From: Candidatus Rifleibacteriota bacterium
GTDB lineage: Bacteria > Muiribacteriota > Ozemobacteria > Ozemobacterales > Ozemobacteraceae
Reading direction: 5' to 3'
Assembly (NCBI GenBank): GCA_015232575.1
Contig: JADFZL010000003.1
Location: 128,001-192,000, forward strand
Length of the DNA stretch: 64,000 nt
Shown: one piece after another, positions 5,749 to 59,974 of the stretch
Layout of the letters: each line of letters begins with the position of its first letter
Numbering within the stretch: the stretch's first letter is position 1
Program-made: the position numbers and the translations under genes
The notes under the pieces: generated by a model
What the model was told of the DNA's origin: nothing
Databases searched by the model: none
The model's input: the letters and a program-made list of their open reading frames with translations, nothing else

Positions 5749-5931
5749 TTATTTGAATGTTCCAACTTTTTTGCTGTCGTGAAGATTTCTCACATTCGTT
5801 CGAGATGACATAGAATAGTCACTGGTGTGGATCAGTTTTTCTCTTTCTTTTTCCATCTCTTTTTTCTCAGAGTCTCCGCGTTTCAGCGTGAGGCTTCTCT
5901 TCTTTTCTTTCTCATCGAATGCCGTTAACAA
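5749..5931 (-). CDS. hypothetical small K/E-rich protein (60 aa), immediately downstream of the response regulator
   Basis: ORF only; highly charged low-complexity sequence; 6-nt gap to the upstream gene. Confidence 0.2.
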   Translation of the reverse strand: MLTAFDEKEKKRSLTLKRGDSEKKEMEKEREKLIHTSDYSMSSRTNVRNLHDSKKVGTFK

Positions 5932-10499: not shown

Positions 10500-10730
10500 C
10501 GGGCATAACAGTGTGTCTGAACGAATTACATTACCGCATTTTGTACAATTAATACTTGTTCGCCACCTTTCTTCACCGGATGTATTAAAACAAGGTCATT
10601 TTTTAATTTAATGGTATAGGAATTTTCATTTTAGTTATGCGTGCTTCCTAAAATCATAATATGAATTCAAACTGTCTTGTAACGATTTCAGATTCATTGT
10701 TTTCCAGGGTGCATTACCGTATTTTATGCT

Positions 10731-10796
10731 GTCATTTCGACCGAAGGTAGAAATCTCGTCTTTTCTATTTGATCTCTCCCTTCGGTCGAGATGACA
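10731..10796. repeat. palindromic intergenic repeat, family 1, copy A (~66 bp imperfect hairpin)
   Basis: gtcatttcgaccgaaggtagaaatctcg...gatctctcccttcggtcgagatgaca; related copies at 33155-33218, 45515-45579 and 57497-57545. Confidence 0.8.
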
Positions 10797-11935: not shown

Positions 11936-12013
11936 ACTTTTTCACCTGCCATTCGATCTATAACATTCATATCCTGATCAAAAAATCCAAATCCAAAATC
12001 ACAAATCTTTTGA

Positions 12014-12129
12014 CACTGTAGCAACGTTACTGAAGAAAAGATATATCTCACGCAGAGATGCAGAGGCACAGAGAAAAGCAGAGGGAAAATCGTGTTATTT
12101 TTATATCTGCTTAGCAACATTGCTACAAT
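12014..12129. mobile_element. MITE-like element, family 3, copy 1 (terminal inverted repeats CACTGTAGCAACGTTACTGA / TAGCAACATTGCTACA)
   Basis: shares termini and the internal ATATCTCACGCAGAGA core with 59562-59654; no coding capacity. Confidence 0.65.
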
Positions 12130-12210
12130 CTCAATCTCTTATCCCTTATCTTACAATCTTAAATCTTACAATCCAAAATCTTACAATCCAAAATCTCTTA
12201 ATCTTGAAGC
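12130..12210. repeat. short tandem repeat (ATCTTACAATCC, period ~15, 3-4 units)
   Basis: atcttacaatcttaa / atcttacaatccaaa / atcttacaatccaaa read directly. Confidence 0.6.
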
Positions 12211-17404: not shown

Positions 17405-17467
17405 TGTTATTCAGTCCGGTCGTTGAGCAAATTAGAAACATGGTTAAACCCTGAAATTCTTGCCAAC

Positions 17468-17700
17468 GGCAGAGAGCACAAAATGCTCGACTGCAGGGAG
17501 TGATAGAGTTGTCCTATTGTTTATTCATCTGATAGAACTTGAGGGGAGAGCACAAAGTCCTCGACCACGGGGAGTGAGACGGATATACTATTGCTTATAT
17601 GTCCGATAGCACTTCAGCGGAGAGCACAAAGTGCTCGACCGCGGGGAGTGAGACGGTCGAACTTGTTCGACCGGCGAGAGGGGGCGCGTGCCCCCTCTCT
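17468..17700. repeat. family 2 repeat: three tandem 74-nt units, each with a GAGCACAAAGTGCTC hairpin, followed by two perfect GC hairpins (CCGGTCGAACTTGTTCGACCGG; GAGAGGGGGCGCGTGCCCCCTCTC); ends 20 nt before the fmdB start
   Basis: units start at 17470, 17544 and 17618; a second copy (one unit plus hairpins) lies at 40160-40250 upstream of pncB. Confidence 0.8.
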
Positions 17701-17720
17701 AAAAAGCAGGGGGTCAGAAA

Positions 17721-17987
17721 ATGCCTTTTTATTCATATCGTGCAAAAAACGTTGAACAATCTTGCCAAAATTGTGCAGAGGAGTTCGATTGCTTTCAGAA
17801 AATTAATGAAATGCCGGTTGAAACATGTCCGGAGTGTGGAAATCAAGTTGTGAGAATTATGCATGCAACTCCAACCGTTAAAGACAGTTCAGAAAAGAAA
17901 ACTTTGTCAGATGATAACCTGAAAAAACACGGGTTCAAAAAATTTGTAAATCGTGGACATGGCAAGGGTTATGACGAGGTTGTCTGA
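17721..17987 (+). CDS. FmdB-family zinc-ribbon protein
   Basis: MPFYSYRAKN..CQNC....CPECG matches the FmdB/TIGR02605 pattern (MPIYEYRC..CGHxFE...........CPxCG). Confidence 0.6.
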   Translation: MPFYSYRAKNVEQSCQNCAEEFDCFQKINEMPVETCPECGNQVVRIMHATPTVKDSSEKKTLSDDNLKKHGFKKFVNRGHGKGYDEVV

Positions 17988-18074: not shown

Positions 18075-18479
18075 ATGGGTTCTGAAATCAGGATTATTGT
18101 ACCAATGTCGGAAAAAAAATCTGTCGGTACTGCCAGAACTTTGCTGGTTGATTGGCTGCGAAATGAAGCTTCTGTGCATTTAAATAGTCGTGTGAAATAT
18201 TTCTCCGAAAGAATGGTTATCAGATATAATCAGGTTGTTATTAAAGACACCAGAAGCCGCTGGGGAAGTTGTTCAGGCAAGGGAAACATTAATTTCAACT
18301 GGCGGATAATAATGGCTCCGGAAGAAGTAATTGATTATATTGTAATTCATGAACTTGCACATATTACCAATATGGATCATTCAAAATCTTTCTGGAACGT
18401 GGTAAAAAATTACTGTGCTGAATATAAAAACCACCAGATGTGGCTGAGGGTTAATGGTGAAAAACTGTTTTTTGTCTGA
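18075..18479 (+). CDS. YgjP-like (DUF45/M48 family) zinc metallohydrolase
   Basis: RWGSCSGKGNINFNWRIIMAPEEVIDYIVIHELAHITNMDHSKSFW contains the HExxH...H motif of the family. Confidence 0.55.
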   Translation: MGSEIRIIVPMSEKKSVGTARTLLVDWLRNEASVHLNSRVKYFSERMVIRYNQVVIKDTRSRWGSCSGKGNINFNWRIIMAPEEVIDYIVIHELAHITNMDHSKSFWNVVKNYCAEYKNHQMWLRVNGEKLFFV

Positions 18480-18573
18480 CGAAAACCACAAAACCCCGAT
18501 CAGAAAAATGATTCTGACCGGGAATATAGTGAATAATACCAATTCTATATAGCTCGTTCATTCAGTTTTCTGT

Positions 18574-18596
18574 AGGGGCTTGATTTATCAAGCCCT
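18574..18596. repeat. family 4 hairpin repeat (AGGGCTTGATAAATCAAGCCCCT) between convergent genes; second copy at 36960-36985
   Basis: near-identical 23-25 nt hairpin in two places. Confidence 0.6.
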
Positions 18597-18632: not shown

Positions 18633-18962
18633 TTAGGCTGAAAGTTGATTTGTAAACCTTTTTTCCAGTTTAAGGATTCTGAAGACGCTTTTTATGTCTT
18701 CGGAAGCTCCGATAACTGAAACACGACCGCCTGATTTTTTCATCAAATTACCTGTCGAAACGAGCAGATCAATTCCGTTTGAATCAAAAATCTTAACCCT
18801 CTCAAGGTCGAAAACAATCTCTTTTGCAGATTCAGCAAGCAATGGTTGGATTGCAGATCTGAGATGAGTAATGTTGCTTGCATTAATATTCTCAGATAAT
18901 TTTACTATTGTTTTGCCTTCCTCTTTACTAATTTCGTAAAGCCGTTCCATGGTGTCCTCCAA
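18633..18962 (-). CDS. STAS-domain anti-sigma-factor antagonist (SpoIIAA-like)
   Basis: 109 aa; STAS fold pattern with a DSNGIDLL phosphorylatable-Ser region. Confidence 0.7.
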   Translation of the reverse strand: MEDTMERLYEISKEEGKTIVKLSENINASNITHLRSAIQPLLAESAKEIVFDLERVKIFDSNGIDLLVSTGNLMKKSGGRVSVIGASEDIKSVFRILKLEKRFTNQLSA

Positions 18963-19332
18963 TTATTACATTTAGTTCTTTCTACTTTTAGAAAACTATA
19001 GCCCCCATAATACCGAAAAAAAAAGAATAAGTTTTTAAAAAAAATAATATTTTTCTAGCTAAAGAGGACGCACGATCGAGCACCTTGTGCTTCCCATCTA
19101 CTAGAAAGCCTCTAAGCGTTAACCATATTTTAAATTCGCATAAAAAAAAAATAAAAAAAGAAAATTCCAATACTATCGAGTTAGTTAAAATGTAAAATAC
19201 ATAAACAAACAAGTGATTATTCAATAAATGTAACGACAGAATAAACAAAGCAATATTCATGCCATTGTTTTTTCAACTCAATTAGACATTCATTAGAAAA
19301 ACATTTATAATCAGCGAAAACAGTCTGGAGAA

Positions 19333-33055: not shown

Positions 33056-33154
33056 AATATATTAACCCTCACCCTTGCCCTTCGCATGCGTTAACTTAAA
33101 GTAGGCAAAATCTTAAATAATGAGACAAACTTTTTATTAACTTTGTGGTAGATT

Positions 33155-33218
33155 GTCATCTCGAGCGAATGTGAGATATCTCAATAATGCGAGCTTTCTT
33201 CCTTCGGTCGAAATGACA
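33155..33218. repeat. palindromic intergenic repeat, family 1, copy B
   Basis: gtcatctcgagcgaatgtgagatatctc...gagctttcttccttcggtcgaaatgaca. Confidence 0.8.
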
Positions 33219-36890: not shown

Positions 36891-37074
36891 AAAATTCCTC
36901 CGGGCATTTTAGTATTTCAGGCATTTATATTAATCAAAATTTATTTACGAATCAGCTTCGGGCTCGATAAATCAAGCCCCTACAAAAGCATGATGAACAA
37001 ATTTTGCAGAATTGGTAGTATATTATCATTTTTCGACAAATTTGCAACCATATAAAGGTTTATTTTATTATTTT

Positions 37075-37838: not shown

Positions 37839-38798
37839 TTATGCGCAACTTTCGCAGCAGCAACAGGATTTTTCTTCGGTTTTTTCTTCAGTAGGCTGAG
37901 AAGATTTTTCACCAACATTCCAGCGATTGAAAGCAACTATTTTCACAGTAGTTCCAATCTTTTTGGCTGTTTCTTCTGCGATAGCATTGATATTTTTGCT
38001 GTCGTCTTTGATATATAGCTGTTCGAGGAGGCAGGAATCTTTGTAAAATTTATCAATTCTGCCTTCAACGATTTTCTGAAGGATGTTTTCGGGTTTGCTT
38101 GCATTTTTCGGATCGTTTTTGATCTGTCCGAGAACTACGTCTCTTTCTCTTTCAACAATCTTTGCAGGAACATCTGTTCTTCCGACGAATTCAGGTTTCA
38201 TGGCAGCGATCTGAAGAGCGACATTGTGTGAGAAATCAATCAGATCAGTGCTCTTTGCAGCTTCAGCAGTTCCACATTCAACGATGGTTGATACGGCAAG
38301 AGCGCCATCACCATGGATATAACTGTCGATGATACCATGTTTTCCCTGAGGAATTGTGAGGTGTGCAAAACGGCCGATTGCGATGTTTTCACCGATTTTG
38401 GCAATAAGATTTTTTCTAACTTCTTCGACCTTGTGTCCGTCGGGAAGTGTAACAGTTTCGAGTTTGGAAATTTCTGTCACTTCTGGATGAGCAAGTAAAT
38501 ATTTTGAAAGTGAATTGCACAGATCAATAAAAAGTTCATTTTTTGCAACAAAATCAGTTTCACAGTTAACTTCAAGGATTACACCATTTCTTCTGTCGGG
38601 TGTGAGAGTGATTGAAACCAATCCCTGGGAAACTGCTCTGCCAGATTTTTTGTCTGCTGAAGCGAGACCCTTTTTTCTGAGAAAATCGACGGCTTCTTCA
38701 ATATTTCCATTGCAGGAAGTAAGTGCTTCTTTGCACTTCATCATGCCAGCACCAGTTTTATCACGGAGTTCACGCACCATTTCAGCGGAGATTATCAT
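37839..38798 (-). CDS. tsf: elongation factor Ts with Cys-rich C-terminal tail
   Basis: MIISAEMVRELRDKTGAGMMKCKEAL UBA-like N-terminus; tail ...EEKSCCCCESCA. Confidence 0.9.
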   Translation of the reverse strand: MIISAEMVRELRDKTGAGMMKCKEALTSCNGNIEEAVDFLRKKGLASADKKSGRAVSQGLVSITLTPDRRNGVILEVNCETDFVAKNELFIDLCNSLSKYLLAHPEVTEISKLETVTLPDGHKVEEVRKNLIAKIGENIAIGRFAHLTIPQGKHGIIDSYIHGDGALAVSTIVECGTAEAAKSTDLIDFSHNVALQIAAMKPEFVGRTDVPAKIVERERDVVLGQIKNDPKNASKPENILQKIVEGRIDKFYKDSCLLEQLYIKDDSKNINAIAEETAKKIGTTVKIVAFNRWNVGEKSSQPTEEKTEEKSCCCCESCA

Positions 38799-39822: not shown

Positions 39823-40159
39823 TTCCTTTGTACCTCCAAGTATTTTATTTTTCCGTTCCAAGACGTGGGCGGACATTTATTCTACAGTATAATCTTAATT
39901 CCGTCAAGTAAACACGCTAATTTAAATAATATTTTTTTTATCTTTCGACTGAAATTATCTTCTAGAGCCATGTTCAGTTATTCATTAACGATAAATTCTG
40001 ACGAAATAATTATTGGAAAATCATAAATATTTATTTGTTTTGAAAATTTCTGGAAAAGAATTATACTACATATTACATTTTTACGAAAGTATAATTTATT
40101 AGTACATGAATTTTTATTCTGGCATGCGTGATAAAGTATGTTTAGACGTTAAAATGGTT

Positions 40160-40250
40160 TCAAGCAGCGTAGAGCGCAAGGTGCTCGATCGCAGGGAGTA
40201 AGCCGGTCGAACTTGTTCGACCGGCGAGAGGGGGTGCGTGCCCTCTCTCC
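40160..40250. repeat. family 2 repeat, copy 2 (one unit plus two GC hairpins), ending 20 nt before the pncB start
   Basis: agagcgcaaggtgctcgatcgcagggagtaagccggtcgaacttgttcgaccggcgagagggggtgcgtgccctctctc; cf. 17618-17700. Confidence 0.8.
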
Positions 40251-40270
40251 AAAAAATCAGGAGCTGAAAT

Positions 40271-41713
40271 ATGAATCTTGCAATGTTAACTGATTTGTAC
40301 CAATTTTCCATGTTGTATGGTTATCATTTGAGTGGAACTGATCGCAAAATGGCAAATTTTGATGTCTTTTTCCGGCGGCATCCGTTTAATGGCGGATTTG
40401 CCGTTTTTGCTGGATTAGCCGATCTTCTTGCAGCGCTTCAGAATTTTCATTTTTCTGATTCAGATCTTGAATATATTAAAAGTCTGGGGTTGAAAGATGC
40501 TGGCTTTATCGAGAAGTTAAAGAATTTTCATTTTTCAGGTGATATCTTTTCCTTTCCAGAAGGAAGCATCTGTTTTCCTGGCGAGCCGCTTATGAGATTT
40601 TCAGGACCATTGTTTGAAGTTCAGTTGCTTGAAACGCTTGTTCTGAACATTATAAATTTTCAAACACTGATAGCCACTAAATCAGCCCGCATTTTTGAGG
40701 CATCAGGTAAAAGCGCAGTTGTTGAATTTGGATTGCGCCGTTCGCATGGTCCGGATGGTGGACTATCAGCTTCAAGAGCAGCATATATCGGTGGATGTGT
40801 AGCAACTTCAAATGTTCTTGCCGGACAGAAATATGGAATTCCTGTCAAAGGAACAATGGCGCATTCCTGGATTATGTCATTTCCGAATGAATTAATTTCA
40901 TTCAGAGAGTATGCAAAAGCTTTTCCAGATTCATCTGTTTTTCTGGTTGACACATACAACACATTAGCTGATGGTGTTCCAAACGCAATAACCGTAGGAC
41001 TGGAAATGAAAAAACACGGTCACACGCTCAAAGGAATCAGACTTGATTCAGGCGATCTTGCATATTTAAGTGTTGAAGCCAGAAAAATGCTTGATGAAGC
41101 AGGATTGACTGAAACAAAAATTCTTGCAAGTAACGATCTTGATGAGTGGATAGTTGATGCGTTAAGGCATGAAGGTGCAAAAATTGATATATGGGGAATC
41201 GGCACAAAACTGGTAACTGGTTCACCTGATTCCGCGCTGGGTGGAGTTTTTAAATTGTCGGCAATTGAGAATGAAGATGGAGTGATTATTCCAAAAATAA
41301 AAGTTTCCCAGAATGAAGAAAAAACGACTAATCCCGGATTGAAGAGCGTATATCGTGTTTACGACACGTCCGGCATGATGACTGGAGATATAATCTGCCT
41401 GGCAGATGAGATTCCAACAGATGAATCTTTTAAACTTGCCATACATCCTCTTAATGAATATAAATTTTTCCGTGTAACTCCTGAATATTCAATTAAGGCG
41501 ATGATGAAAAAGGTTTTTTCAAATGGAGTAATCGTTGATGGAACTGAAAAACTTTCCGATATAAGGAATAGAGTGTTAGGAGAGCTGGAGAAACTTCATT
41601 CAAGTCACAAGCGACTCGTTAATCCGCATTATTATAAAGTTTCACTTTCTCAGAAATTATTCAGATTACGAAAGTCCCTGCTTGAAAAGGGATTAAATAT
41701 CCAAAAAGAATAA
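40271..41713 (+). CDS. pncB: nicotinate phosphoribosyltransferase
   Basis: MNLAMLTDLYQFSMLYGY N-terminus and overall NAPRTase pattern. Confidence 0.85.
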   Translation: MNLAMLTDLYQFSMLYGYHLSGTDRKMANFDVFFRRHPFNGGFAVFAGLADLLAALQNFHFSDSDLEYIKSLGLKDAGFIEKLKNFHFSGDIFSFPEGSICFPGEPLMRFSGPLFEVQLLETLVLNIINFQTLIATKSARIFEASGKSAVVEFGLRRSHGPDGGLSASRAAYIGGCVATSNVLAGQKYGIPVKGTMAHSWIMSFPNELISFREYAKAFPDSSVFLVDTYNTLADGVPNAITVGLEMKKHGHTLKGIRLDSGDLAYLSVEARKMLDEAGLTETKILASNDLDEWIVDALRHEGAKIDIWGIGTKLVTGSPDSALGGVFKLSAIENEDGVIIPKIKVSQNEEKTTNPGLKSVYRVYDTSGMMTGDIICLADEIPTDESFKLAIHPLNEYKFFRVTPEYSIKAMMKKVFSNGVIVDGTEKLSDIRNRVLGELEKLHSSHKRLVNPHYYKVSLSQKLFRLRKSLLEKGLNIQKE

Positions 41714-45333: not shown

Positions 45334-45514
45334 ATTTTGTTAAAGCCAAGCTTATATCGTATAATCGTATCTACTCAATTTTTACTCAATATTGTATTAG
45401 AAATCTCTTTTTTTGTCCAATGCAAAAACTTTTTTTTATCGTCAATGCCAATGAGCTTAGTACGCAAAACCTTATATAAGGGGGCATATTTGCGTGTTAA
45501 CTATTATGTGAGCT

Positions 45515-45579
45515 GTCATCTCGAACGAATGTGAGAGATCTCCGCAAGTGCGAGATTTCTCCCTTCGGTCGAAATGACA
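45515..45579. repeat. palindromic intergenic repeat, family 1, copy C
   Basis: gtcatctcgaacgaatgtgagagatctc...gagatttctcccttcggtcgaaatgaca. Confidence 0.8.
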
Positions 45580-57430: not shown

Positions 57431-57496
57431 GTTACTTTCTCCTGATATATTTTCGGGTTTGAGCTGGTCGTGATATGTTCAATGTATTGATTCATG

Positions 57497-57545
57497 TTAT
57501 TTCGACCGAAGGGAGAAATCTGGCATTTTCTACGTCGAGATGACA
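57497..57545. repeat. palindromic intergenic repeat, family 1, copy D (internally deleted) between pyrE and pyrF
   Basis: gttatttcgaccgaagggagaaatctgg...gtcgagatgaca; closest to copy A. Confidence 0.7.
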
Positions 57546-59561: not shown

Positions 59562-59654
59562 CACTGTAGCAATGTTGCTGAAAAATGAATATATCTCACG
59601 CAGAGACGCTCGTATTTTTTTTAATTGTATCTGCTCAGCAACATTGCTACAGTG
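59562..59654. mobile_element. MITE-like element, family 3, copy 2 (20-bp perfect terminal inverted repeats CACTGTAGCAATGTTGCTGA / TCAGCAACATTGCTACAGTG)
   Basis: read directly; internal AATATATCTCACGCAGAGACGCTCG core shared with 12014-12129. Confidence 0.7.
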
Positions 59655-59974
59655 TCAAAAAAAGTGTTTTAATTTCATATTTTTTAATTGCCATCTTTCT
59701 CAGGCTGAGTATTTATGATTTTGCCGGCAATTACCCATCAGAATTCTTTGAAATATGCATTAATAGAATATTGTTCTTAAAAAACATTTGCGAAAATCAT
59801 TATCTGAAAACCATTTATTTATAATGGTCTTGAGACTATTGGATAATTGTGGTGGTTTTGTCTGCGTAAGTTTCTGACGCTGGTAATTTTCTATTCTGAA
59901 TGTTATTCTTCAGTAAGAACTTTCAAGGATAATATGAATATTTATAAAAGGAACTTGAAGTTAAAGGGCGATAA

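Follow-up and report, generated by a model that had tools for sequence, protein, structure and literature searches.

The question raised by this locus is why nearly the same block of tandem repeats and hairpins stands directly before the start codons of two unrelated genes. The window, a stretch of 64,000 nucleotides from Candidatus Rifleibacteriota (contig JADFZL010000003.1, positions 128,001 to 192,000), carries a tandem array of 74-nt units closed by two GC-rich hairpins upstream of an FmdB-type zinc-ribbon gene, and a related block upstream of pncB. A preliminary description, made from the letters alone, had proposed a mobile regulatory cassette or a REP-like element. The favoured answer, held at a probability of about 60%, is a modular interspersed repeat, non-coding and restricted to its lineage, of the same kind as BOX, MIRU or REP-BIME and representing a new sequence family. 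It is preferred over an ancient regulatory RNA because the copies are alike even in their loops, the number of modules varies, one copy has decayed, the orthologous sites are empty and the host DNA is rich in repeats. The REP-like, mobile half of the earlier proposal is supported by the empty orthologous leaders, the decayed third copy, the unequal unit number and the presence of other repeat families.

Tandem Repeats Finder reports a single tandem array here, at 17472-17656, with a period of 74, 2.5 copies, 81% matches and a score of 237, and the second terminal hairpin (HP2) ends 21 nt before the start codon, bearing out the array and hairpin pair as first described. The window repeat search aligns 17615-17705 with 40165-40255 at 89% identity over 91 nt, both on the + strand, and the near-identical block claimed before pncB is therefore real. 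Two full copies, 22.5 kb apart, and a truncated third (copy 3), which had been overlooked, occupy separate intergenic sites, making the element a dispersed repeat in the window; a span of 23 kb takes in all three copies, and one of 1.7 kb two of them. A degenerate unit pattern matches exactly four window sites (17473, 17547, 17621 and 40171; window-shuffle mean 0.00), and a pattern for hairpin 1 exactly two (window-shuffle mean 0.06). With its filters switched off, a covariance model built on the 91-nt terminal block (R1) returns only the known loci in the window; copy 3 was found with a profile of the left arm and first hairpin (L+P1). The unit number is unequal between loci, with three at fmdB and one at pncB. 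Counting the pncB unit as the fourth, identities over 42 nt are 38 for units 2 and 3, 35 for units 3 and 4, and 29 for units 1 and 4.

Each full copy follows a fixed order, from a 30-nt AT-rich left arm (L) through n units of 74 nt to hairpins HP1 and HP2, with n=3 in copy 1 (17437-17699, +) and n=1 in copy 2 (40135-40249, +). A unit comprises the P1 hairpin (GCG-GA-GAGCAC-AAA-GUGCUC-GAC-CGC), a purine-rich linker and a second hairpin, and the linker motif GGGAGT is invariant across all four units, including the decayed unit 1. HP1 reads CGGTCGAAC-TT-GTTCGACCG and HP2 GAGAGGGGGC-GCGT-GCCCCCTCTC; the second hairpin of unit 2, CGGAUAUA...UAUGUCCG, is AT-rich, stands in register with HP1 and is designated HP1'. 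The left-flank alignment places the left boundary about 30 nt upstream of the start first given, at an AT-rich arm beginning ATGGTTAAAC... at 17437 and ATGTTTAGAC... at 40135. The right boundary of the repeat lies at HP2, because the next 21 nt are the ordinary ribosome-binding consensus of the genome. The terminal block has a G+C content of 65-68%, against 39% for the window. Copy 3 is without the linker motif, HP1 and HP2; some 120 nt separate it from the downstream STAS-domain gene, whose ATG is at 18950 on the minus strand. The parts of the element and its neighbours are listed below.

17437-17466, + strand: left AT-rich arm (L) of copy 1, AACATGGTTAAACCCTGAAATTCTTGCCAA, matched in alignment by 40135-40164 and by the relic's start at 19128.
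17467-17540, + strand: unit 1, 74 nt, the most decayed (Tandem Repeats Finder; R1 27.6 bits; pair counts).
17469-17494, + strand: P1 hairpin of unit 1, with outer pairs GCA..UGC and an inner stem of 5 bp, followed by the GGGAGT linker and a degenerate second hairpin.
17541-17614, + strand: unit 2, 74 nt (Tandem Repeats Finder; R1 30 bits; hairpin in the minimum-free-energy structure; pair counts).
17543-17568, + strand: P1 of unit 2, with two mismatches, followed by the linker GGGGAGTGAGA.
17580-17605, + strand: HP1' of unit 2, AT-rich hairpin CGGATATA...TATGTCCG, 8 bp including one U.G.
17615-17653, + strand: first half of unit 3, with P1 at 17617-17642 and the purine-rich linker GGGGAGTGAGA.
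17654-17673, + strand: HP1 of copy 1, a 20-nt perfect palindrome, CGGTCGAACTTGTTCGACCG.
17676-17699, + strand: HP2 of copy 1, a perfect 10-bp GC hairpin, GAGAGGGGGC-GCGT-GCCCCCTCTC.
17700-17720, + strand: ribosome-binding region of the FmdB-type gene, TAAAAAGCAGGGGGTCAGAAA, judged native and outside the repeat, the same consensus standing at many window genes.
17721-17987, + strand: Zn_ribbon_8 (FmdB-type) gene, 88 aa, downstream of copy 1 (Pfam PF09723, E = 5.7e-10).
19073-19128, - strand: copy 3, truncated and decayed, consisting of the L arm and P1 (ATATGGTTAACGC...AAGCACAAGGTGCTCGATCG; nhmmer E = 1.2e-4, profile positions 2-57 of 61).
40135-40164, + strand: left AT-rich arm (L) of copy 2, AGTATGTTTAGACGTTAAAATGGTTTCAAG.
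40165-40201, + strand: single unit of copy 2, with P1 at 40167-40192 containing one G.U pair, and the linker AGGGAGTAA.
40202-40225, + strand: HP1 of copy 2, a 24-nt perfect palindrome, GCCGGTCGAACTTGTTCGACCGGC.
40226-40249, + strand: HP2 of copy 2, GAGAGGGGGT-GCGT-GCCCTCTCTC, with two G.U pairs, which form on the + strand only.
40271-41713, + strand: pncB (nicotinate phosphoribosyltransferase; Pfam NAPRTase_N/C), downstream of copy 2.

Several details of the preliminary description required correction. The strings quoted there for all three units are exact in unit 3 only, units 1 and 2 having diverged: unit 1 carries GAGCACAAAATGCTC and CGACTGCAGGGAGTGATAGAG in their place, and unit 2 carries GAGCACAAAGTCCTC, with a C.C mismatch, and CGACCACGGGGAGTGAGACGG. 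The palindrome given as 22 nt at fmdB measures 20 nt (CGGTCGAACTTGTTCGACCG), and the quoted string CCGGTCGAAC...CCGG comes from pncB, whose copy has a palindrome of 24 nt. The second hairpin, presented as perfect, is so at fmdB and imperfect at pncB, with its two G.U pairs.

The same genes in related organisms lack the element. Two window proteins, the radical-SAM protein and that of pncB, match MBF0406817.1 and MBF0406841.1 of a Candidatus Riflebacteria metagenome-assembled genome (MAG) at 100% identity, and the comparison set comprised four orthologous loci from three relative assemblies, at 55-62% protein identity and 92 kb in extent. The FmdB-YgjP pair and the divergent rpsB|pncB pair are conserved in these relatives, with the FmdB N-terminus MPFY common to the window and two of the loci (L004 and L005). 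L004 and L005 have no copy upstream of FmdB, and L006 and L007 have none upstream of pncB; the rpsB|pncB gap of the latter two loci measures 195-198 bp, compared with 394 bp in the window. Unfiltered R1 finds no copy in the 92 kb of relatives, and nhmmer concurs. The best R1 score among them, 18 bits at L007 2981-3071 (-), falls on an unrelated three-hairpin element and was rejected as a homologue. An element missing upstream of both the FmdB and the pncB orthologues does not behave as a conserved cis-regulatory RNA.

GC-rich multi-hairpin intergenic elements of other sequence do occur in the relatives, at L004 11960-12050 and at L007 2981-3071 (-), with GTCCCAAAGGGAC / CCGGGGGTTTCAACCCCCGG / GTCCCGAAGGGAC as examples from L007, suggesting that lineage-specific hairpin repeats are common in the Riflebacteria phylum.

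Searches of wider collections gave the same picture within their reach. The Rfam scan proposed as a check matches no family: Rfam 15 at gathering thresholds is silent across the whole 64 kb, and at E <= 10 nothing relevant appears on either full locus, NAD+ riboswitches and guanidine-II included, so that both of these identities were rejected. The best sub-threshold score, for ar14 on the opposite strand, is 21.8 bits against a threshold of 58.8. Exact-pattern scans, which overlook diverged relatives of the element, gave 0 matches for the hairpin pattern in 185,579 species genomes and 0 matches for the unit or hairpin pattern in viral contigs. The unit pattern has one match in the JGI metagenomes, at L001 1065-1093, which was dismissed as chance; the site belongs to a purL-like coding region in a GC-rich organism. 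No blastn match was found among plasmids and phages. The source genome lies outside the searched public collections, and its lineage is not among the species representatives scanned, where a radical-SAM query gave only Roseburia at 20% identity. Six-frame peptides of the element have no match at E <= 10 among 5.8 billion proteins, and on this basis the element is taken as non-coding.

The + strand folds far better than dinucleotide shuffles at both full loci, with z = -5.6 for the 286 nt at fmdB and z = -3.9 for the 136 nt at pncB, while copy 3 folds no better than its shuffles (z = -1.1). On the four-unit alignment, the P1 and HP1 helices have 89.7% of cells paired, and 6 of 17 pairs are altered on both sides; none of 500 shuffles reaches the observed values, and sliding the partner columns lowers pairing to 19-44%. 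Five of the six double changes fall in the HP1/HP1' helix, where a hairpin persists despite the differing sequence. These changes may reflect compensatory evolution, a swap of two modules sharing a CGG...CCG clamp, or templated quasi-palindrome correction, and the covariation is known here among paralogous units of one genome only. G.U pairs specific to the + strand number four, and those specific to the - strand one. This wobble bias toward the sense strand is weakly suggestive and not significant, and a single-stranded DNA hairpin would give an equal pattern.

Hairpins of this kind may also act as DNA. The near-perfect palindromes (GAGCAC-N3-GTGCTC, CGGTCGAAC-N2-GTTCGACCG and GAGAGGGGGC-N4-GCCCCCTCTC) could be sites for dimeric or nucleoid proteins, or single-stranded DNA hairpins recognized by an HUH/RAYT or integron-attC-type enzyme. 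The 74-bp period, close to seven helical turns, would set the P1 palindromes on one face of the helix by arithmetic alone, arm covariation cannot separate RNA from DNA hairpins, and the genome's REP/REPIN-like families with GTAG-type motifs suggest that a RAYT-type enzyme may exist elsewhere in it. However, pairing is kept while bases change between HP1 and HP1', which argues against sequence-specific operators, and the arm transitions of the pncB copy preserve G.U pairing on one strand only. GTAG precedes P1 in only one of four units, no recombinase gene lies in the 64 kb, and the elements are single and direct instead of forming inverted REPIN pairs. A DNA-level role is accordingly considered unlikely.

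HP2 ends at 17699 and 40249 and the start codons lie at 17721 and 40271, leaving 21 nt at both loci, so the claim of identical placement before two unrelated start codons holds, for two loci only, while roughly 120 nt lie between copy 3 and the start codon of its gene. The 21 nt behind HP2 conform to the general ribosome-binding site (RBS) consensus of the genome (aTCAGGAG...aaaATG), present at many window genes, and the idea that the element brings its own RBS was rejected, the similarity beyond HP2 being this genome-wide consensus. Either orientation faces a gene start at two of the three loci, these being divergent intergenic regions, and orientation is weak evidence for that reason. The predicted accessibility of the Shine-Dalgarno (SD) sequence falls to 0.27 at both genes when the element is included, from 0.57 at fmdB and from 0.41 at pncB, which is only an in silico hint.

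The terminator scan finds no intrinsic terminator at the element on either strand, HP2 being trailed by UAAAAA or CAAAAAA and not by the U-run that should follow a GC hairpin. Two promoter candidates inside the element were rejected: a weak -10-like TAAAAT in the left arm of the pncB copy is not conserved in the other copy, and a 9/12 match, TCGACC-17-TATACT, within unit 2 is not kept in other units. No promoter is conserved between copies, and no promoter and terminator pair frames the element. Long-range pairing of the left arm with the RBS was likewise rejected as a shared feature; it is strong in copy 1, at -14.8 kcal/mol, where 2 of 37 other RBS regions pair as well, and ordinary in copy 2, at -7.6 kcal/mol, where 15 of 37 do.

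These observations bear on the possibility of a dedicated cis-regulatory leader RNA, a protein, small-RNA or ligand platform or a thermosensor, that co-regulates fmdB-ygjP and pncB through RBS access, with the tandem units supplying more sites to bind, such as GGA/GGGAGU motifs recognized by a CsrA-like protein or by the 30S subunit. The equal HP2-to-start distance at both genes, the sense orientation, the invariant single-stranded GGGAGT in all four units, the hairpins kept through changes on both sides, the 4 to 1 excess of G.U pairs for the sense strand and the lower predicted SD accessibility all fit such an RNA. Yet the leaders of the same genes are without it at all four relative loci, and copies 89% identical even in their loops speak for a shared origin not long ago and against an old RNA under structural constraint. 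Copy 3, some 120 nt away from its gene, has neither linker nor terminal hairpins, no Rfam family applies, pairing of the left arm with the RBS is inconsistent (equalled by 2 and by 15 of 37 other RBS regions), and no functional link between fmdB and pncB is evident. A dedicated leader RNA is thus unlikely. The regulatory half of the earlier interpretation stays a conjecture, in view of the restriction to two loci, the ordinary RBS consensus, the divergent setting and the want of an Rfam family, promoter or terminator.

The genomic surroundings offer no obvious agent of movement. All window genes are ordinary chromosomal ones, including flagellar hook genes, the rpsB-tsf-pyrH-frr-uppS-cdsA-rseP cluster and pyrimidine synthesis, and no transposase, recombinase, RAYT, reverse transcriptase or Cas gene is among the genes of the 64 kb. 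The element has no terminal inverted repeats (TIRs), since only internal hairpin arms pair and its ends do not, which sets it apart from MITEs (miniature inverted-repeat transposable elements). Its flanks are A-rich (..agaaac| / |taaaaa; ..ataaagt| / |caaaaa) and show no clear target-site duplication (TSD) by eye, the junctions being undefined by a close empty site. Several other small repeat families are present in the window, against essentially none in the relatives' loci.

The same facts raise the possibility that nothing mobile is involved, and that ectopic gene conversion or segmental duplication carried a leader or intergenic segment between a few neighbouring loci, with local tandem duplication afterwards, the family being no larger than these copies. 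The clustering of all three copies within 23 kb, two of them within 1.7 kb, agrees with this, as do the lack of TIRs, of a TSD by eye and of a transposase in the window, and the absence of copies from searchable public collections. However, the flanks have no homology beyond the element, which conversion tracts would need, the element is compositionally foreign to its surroundings, and the window holds several other dispersed repeat families; the public-collection searches, for their part, are blind to the source genome, which is not in them. Local copying is therefore regarded as rather improbable.

The geometry of the array, with a 37-nt GC-rich hairpin "repeat" alternating with a 37-nt AT-rich segment, resembles repeats and spacers, and together with the strong folding it could suggest a mini-CRISPR array in decay or a separate small-RNA gene. 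The two "spacers" are nevertheless homologous to each other (CTATTG.TTAT..TC.GATAG.ACTT), which effectively refutes the CRISPR reading, and the "repeats" are only 71-90% identical. With a single unit at the pncB locus, no cas genes in the window, no promoter and terminator pair around the element and a negative Rfam search, this explanation as a whole is highly improbable.

Comparison with known systems favours the interspersed-repeat reading. Like BOX (boxA - boxB(n) - boxC) of S. pneumoniae and S. suis, the element is a composite non-coding intergenic repeat with fixed ends and variable internal modules, and it shares with BOX predicted stem-loops on transcription, restriction to a lineage and the lack of a transposase of its own. 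Its module is 74 nt long whereas the boxB module measures 45 nt, and its terminal block has 65-68% GC in surroundings of 39% GC. No sequence similarity to BOX came up, in so far as Rfam and the plasmid and phage DNA gave no match, the BOX sequences themselves not being compared; homology across phyla would be unexpected. In BOX, a variable number of tandem boxB modules folds into stem-loops with context-dependent effects on neighbouring genes, raising or lowering downstream expression according to module and orientation (PMC3049150). The boxA and boxC ends pair together and resemble insertion-sequence terminal inverted repeats, which the present element lacks.

MIRU, reportedly described by Supply and co-workers in 1997, are said to be mycobacterial tandem units of 40-100 bp, dispersed intergenically and often inside operons. 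The element resembles them in its intergenic tandem units, its orientation with the flanking genes and a unit number that varies by locus. MIRUs differ in carrying short open reading frames (ORFs) that overlap flanking stop and start codons; a coupling ORF of this type was considered and none is evident here from the reading frames, and neither the hairpins nor the terminal hairpin pair are MIRU hallmarks. With REP, BIME and REPIN sequences the element shares short GC-rich imperfect palindromes, an intergenic location and possible effects on mRNA stability, and the window itself holds REPIN-like families. REPs, however, usually follow genes or lie between convergent genes, begin with GT(A/G)G and form inverted pairs, whereas this element stands upstream of genes as direct tandems with no RAYT gene in the window; GTAG occurs before P1 in the pncB copy only, the other units having GGAG or CAGA.

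Two leader systems are comparable in part. The STAB-SD of Bacillus thuringiensis cryIIIA and 5'-terminal stem-loops are 5' mRNA stabilisers, and the comparison is one of mechanism only. By analogy, the SD-like GGGAGU, far upstream of the start and flanked by hairpins, could bind the 30S subunit or block 5'-end-dependent RNases, although STAB-SD is not a repeated element. Guanidine-II (mini-ykkC) also presents a pair of short GC-rich hairpins directly 5' of the RBS, but the loops here are CUUG and GCGU, not ACGR, there is no Rfam match at E <= 10, and the downstream genes are unrelated to guanidine.

Certain observations weigh against an interspersed repeat. The case comprises only three loci, all within a single 64-kb window of a single MAG, and the relatives are distant (55-62%), so that their empty sites show lineage restriction, not recent insertion. 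Without TIRs, a clear TSD by eye or a transposase, RAYT or recombinase in the window, mobility is mechanistically unsupported. An exact spacing of 21 nt at two unrelated genes is unlikely for random insertion and hints at target preference or selection, and an invariant GGGAGT in four of four units is more conservation than neutral decay predicts. The compensatory look of HP1 may come from two modules set in register, or from templated correction, instead of selection. Additionally, the terminal block is GC-rich (65-68% versus 39%) whereas classical MITEs are AT-rich (PMC3049150).

The 21-nt spacing, the invariant GGGAGT and the high G+C keep alive, at low odds, a portable leader module under selection. 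As a modular 5'-leader riboregulator, the repeat would deliver P1, a single-stranded GGGAGU site and two clamp hairpins at a fixed 21 nt from start codons, a proposal judged improbable. If true, it would wire unrelated genes (fmdB-ygjP, pncB and others in the rest of the genome) into one post-transcriptional regulon, controlled through an RNA-binding protein or 30S "standby" binding, with module number tuning the strength.

Returning to the interspersed-repeat reading, the anatomy, the repetition, the kept hairpins and the absence from the relatives are shown, and we infer mobility, transcription and any effect on expression as follows. Copies would spread to new intergenic sites by some mechanism, the 74-nt module would then be amplified locally through slippage or unequal recombination, and copies would decay afterwards, as unit 1 and the relic at 19073-19128 may illustrate. 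The two full copies stand in sense orientation ahead of the RBS and behind the upstream gene or probable promoter, and because of this location they are most likely transcribed, within the 5' leader of pncB and in the intercistronic region from the radical-SAM gene to fmdB. The resulting mRNA would carry stable hairpins in a row, with single-stranded linkers (GGGAGU) that resemble an SD. Any effect would likely be generic and structural, with altered mRNA decay and modestly lower RBS access, as opposed to a ligand-specific switch.

The element adds one family to the small structured interspersed repeats, in Riflebacteria, a phylum known from metagenomes only. For annotation, it flags non-coding DNA that might otherwise be called as spurious ORFs, the 74-nt array is a candidate variable-number tandem repeat for strain typing, and a third use lies in quality control of MAG assembly. 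A strict genome-wide preference for sites just upstream of RBSs, if found, would make it an example from nature of a standard 5' leader being spread among genes by a repeat.

Copies 1 and 3 are inverted relative to each other and flank a 1.4-kb segment containing fmdB, the YgjP-like gene and the STAS gene. The gene order around this segment is unlike that in L004 and L005, and repeat-mediated rearrangement is possible. The YgjP-like metallopeptidase ORF at 18075-18479 encodes 134 aa, covering profile positions 92-205 of 207 with a short N-terminus; the YgjP-like proteins of the relatives have 175-226 aa and their genes directly abut FmdB, while in the window an 87-nt gap follows fmdB. The window gene may be truncated or use another start.

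Other repeats of the window include a REPIN-like family, TGTCATYTCGA[C/G]CGAAGG.AGAAATCTC, mostly in inverted pairs that give long hairpins, at 5783-5810, 10730-10796, 33154-33218, 45514-45579 and 57495-57527; it is probably the "family 1" of the preliminary description. The octamer TTCGACCG is common to this family and HP1, with an estimated chance of such sharing of roughly 5%. A two-copy element of about 110-130 nt, at 12001-12134 and 59562-59667, has ends that are inverted repeats with CTGTAGCAACGTTGCTACAG-type GTAG palindromes and is REPIN- or MITE-like; its first copy adjoins a 15-nt tandem repeat, ATCTTACAATCCAAA, at 12148-12196 (3.3 copies). A GTAG-plus-hairpin motif of REP-typical form, CTGTAGGGGCTTGATTTATCAAGCCC, occurs at 18568-18595 (+), between the convergent YgjP-like and STAS genes, and inverted at 36960-36987, between frr and pyrH. 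Finally, EF-Ts, encoded at 37839-38798 (-), has an unusual Cys-rich C-terminal tail, ...EEKSCCCCESCA.

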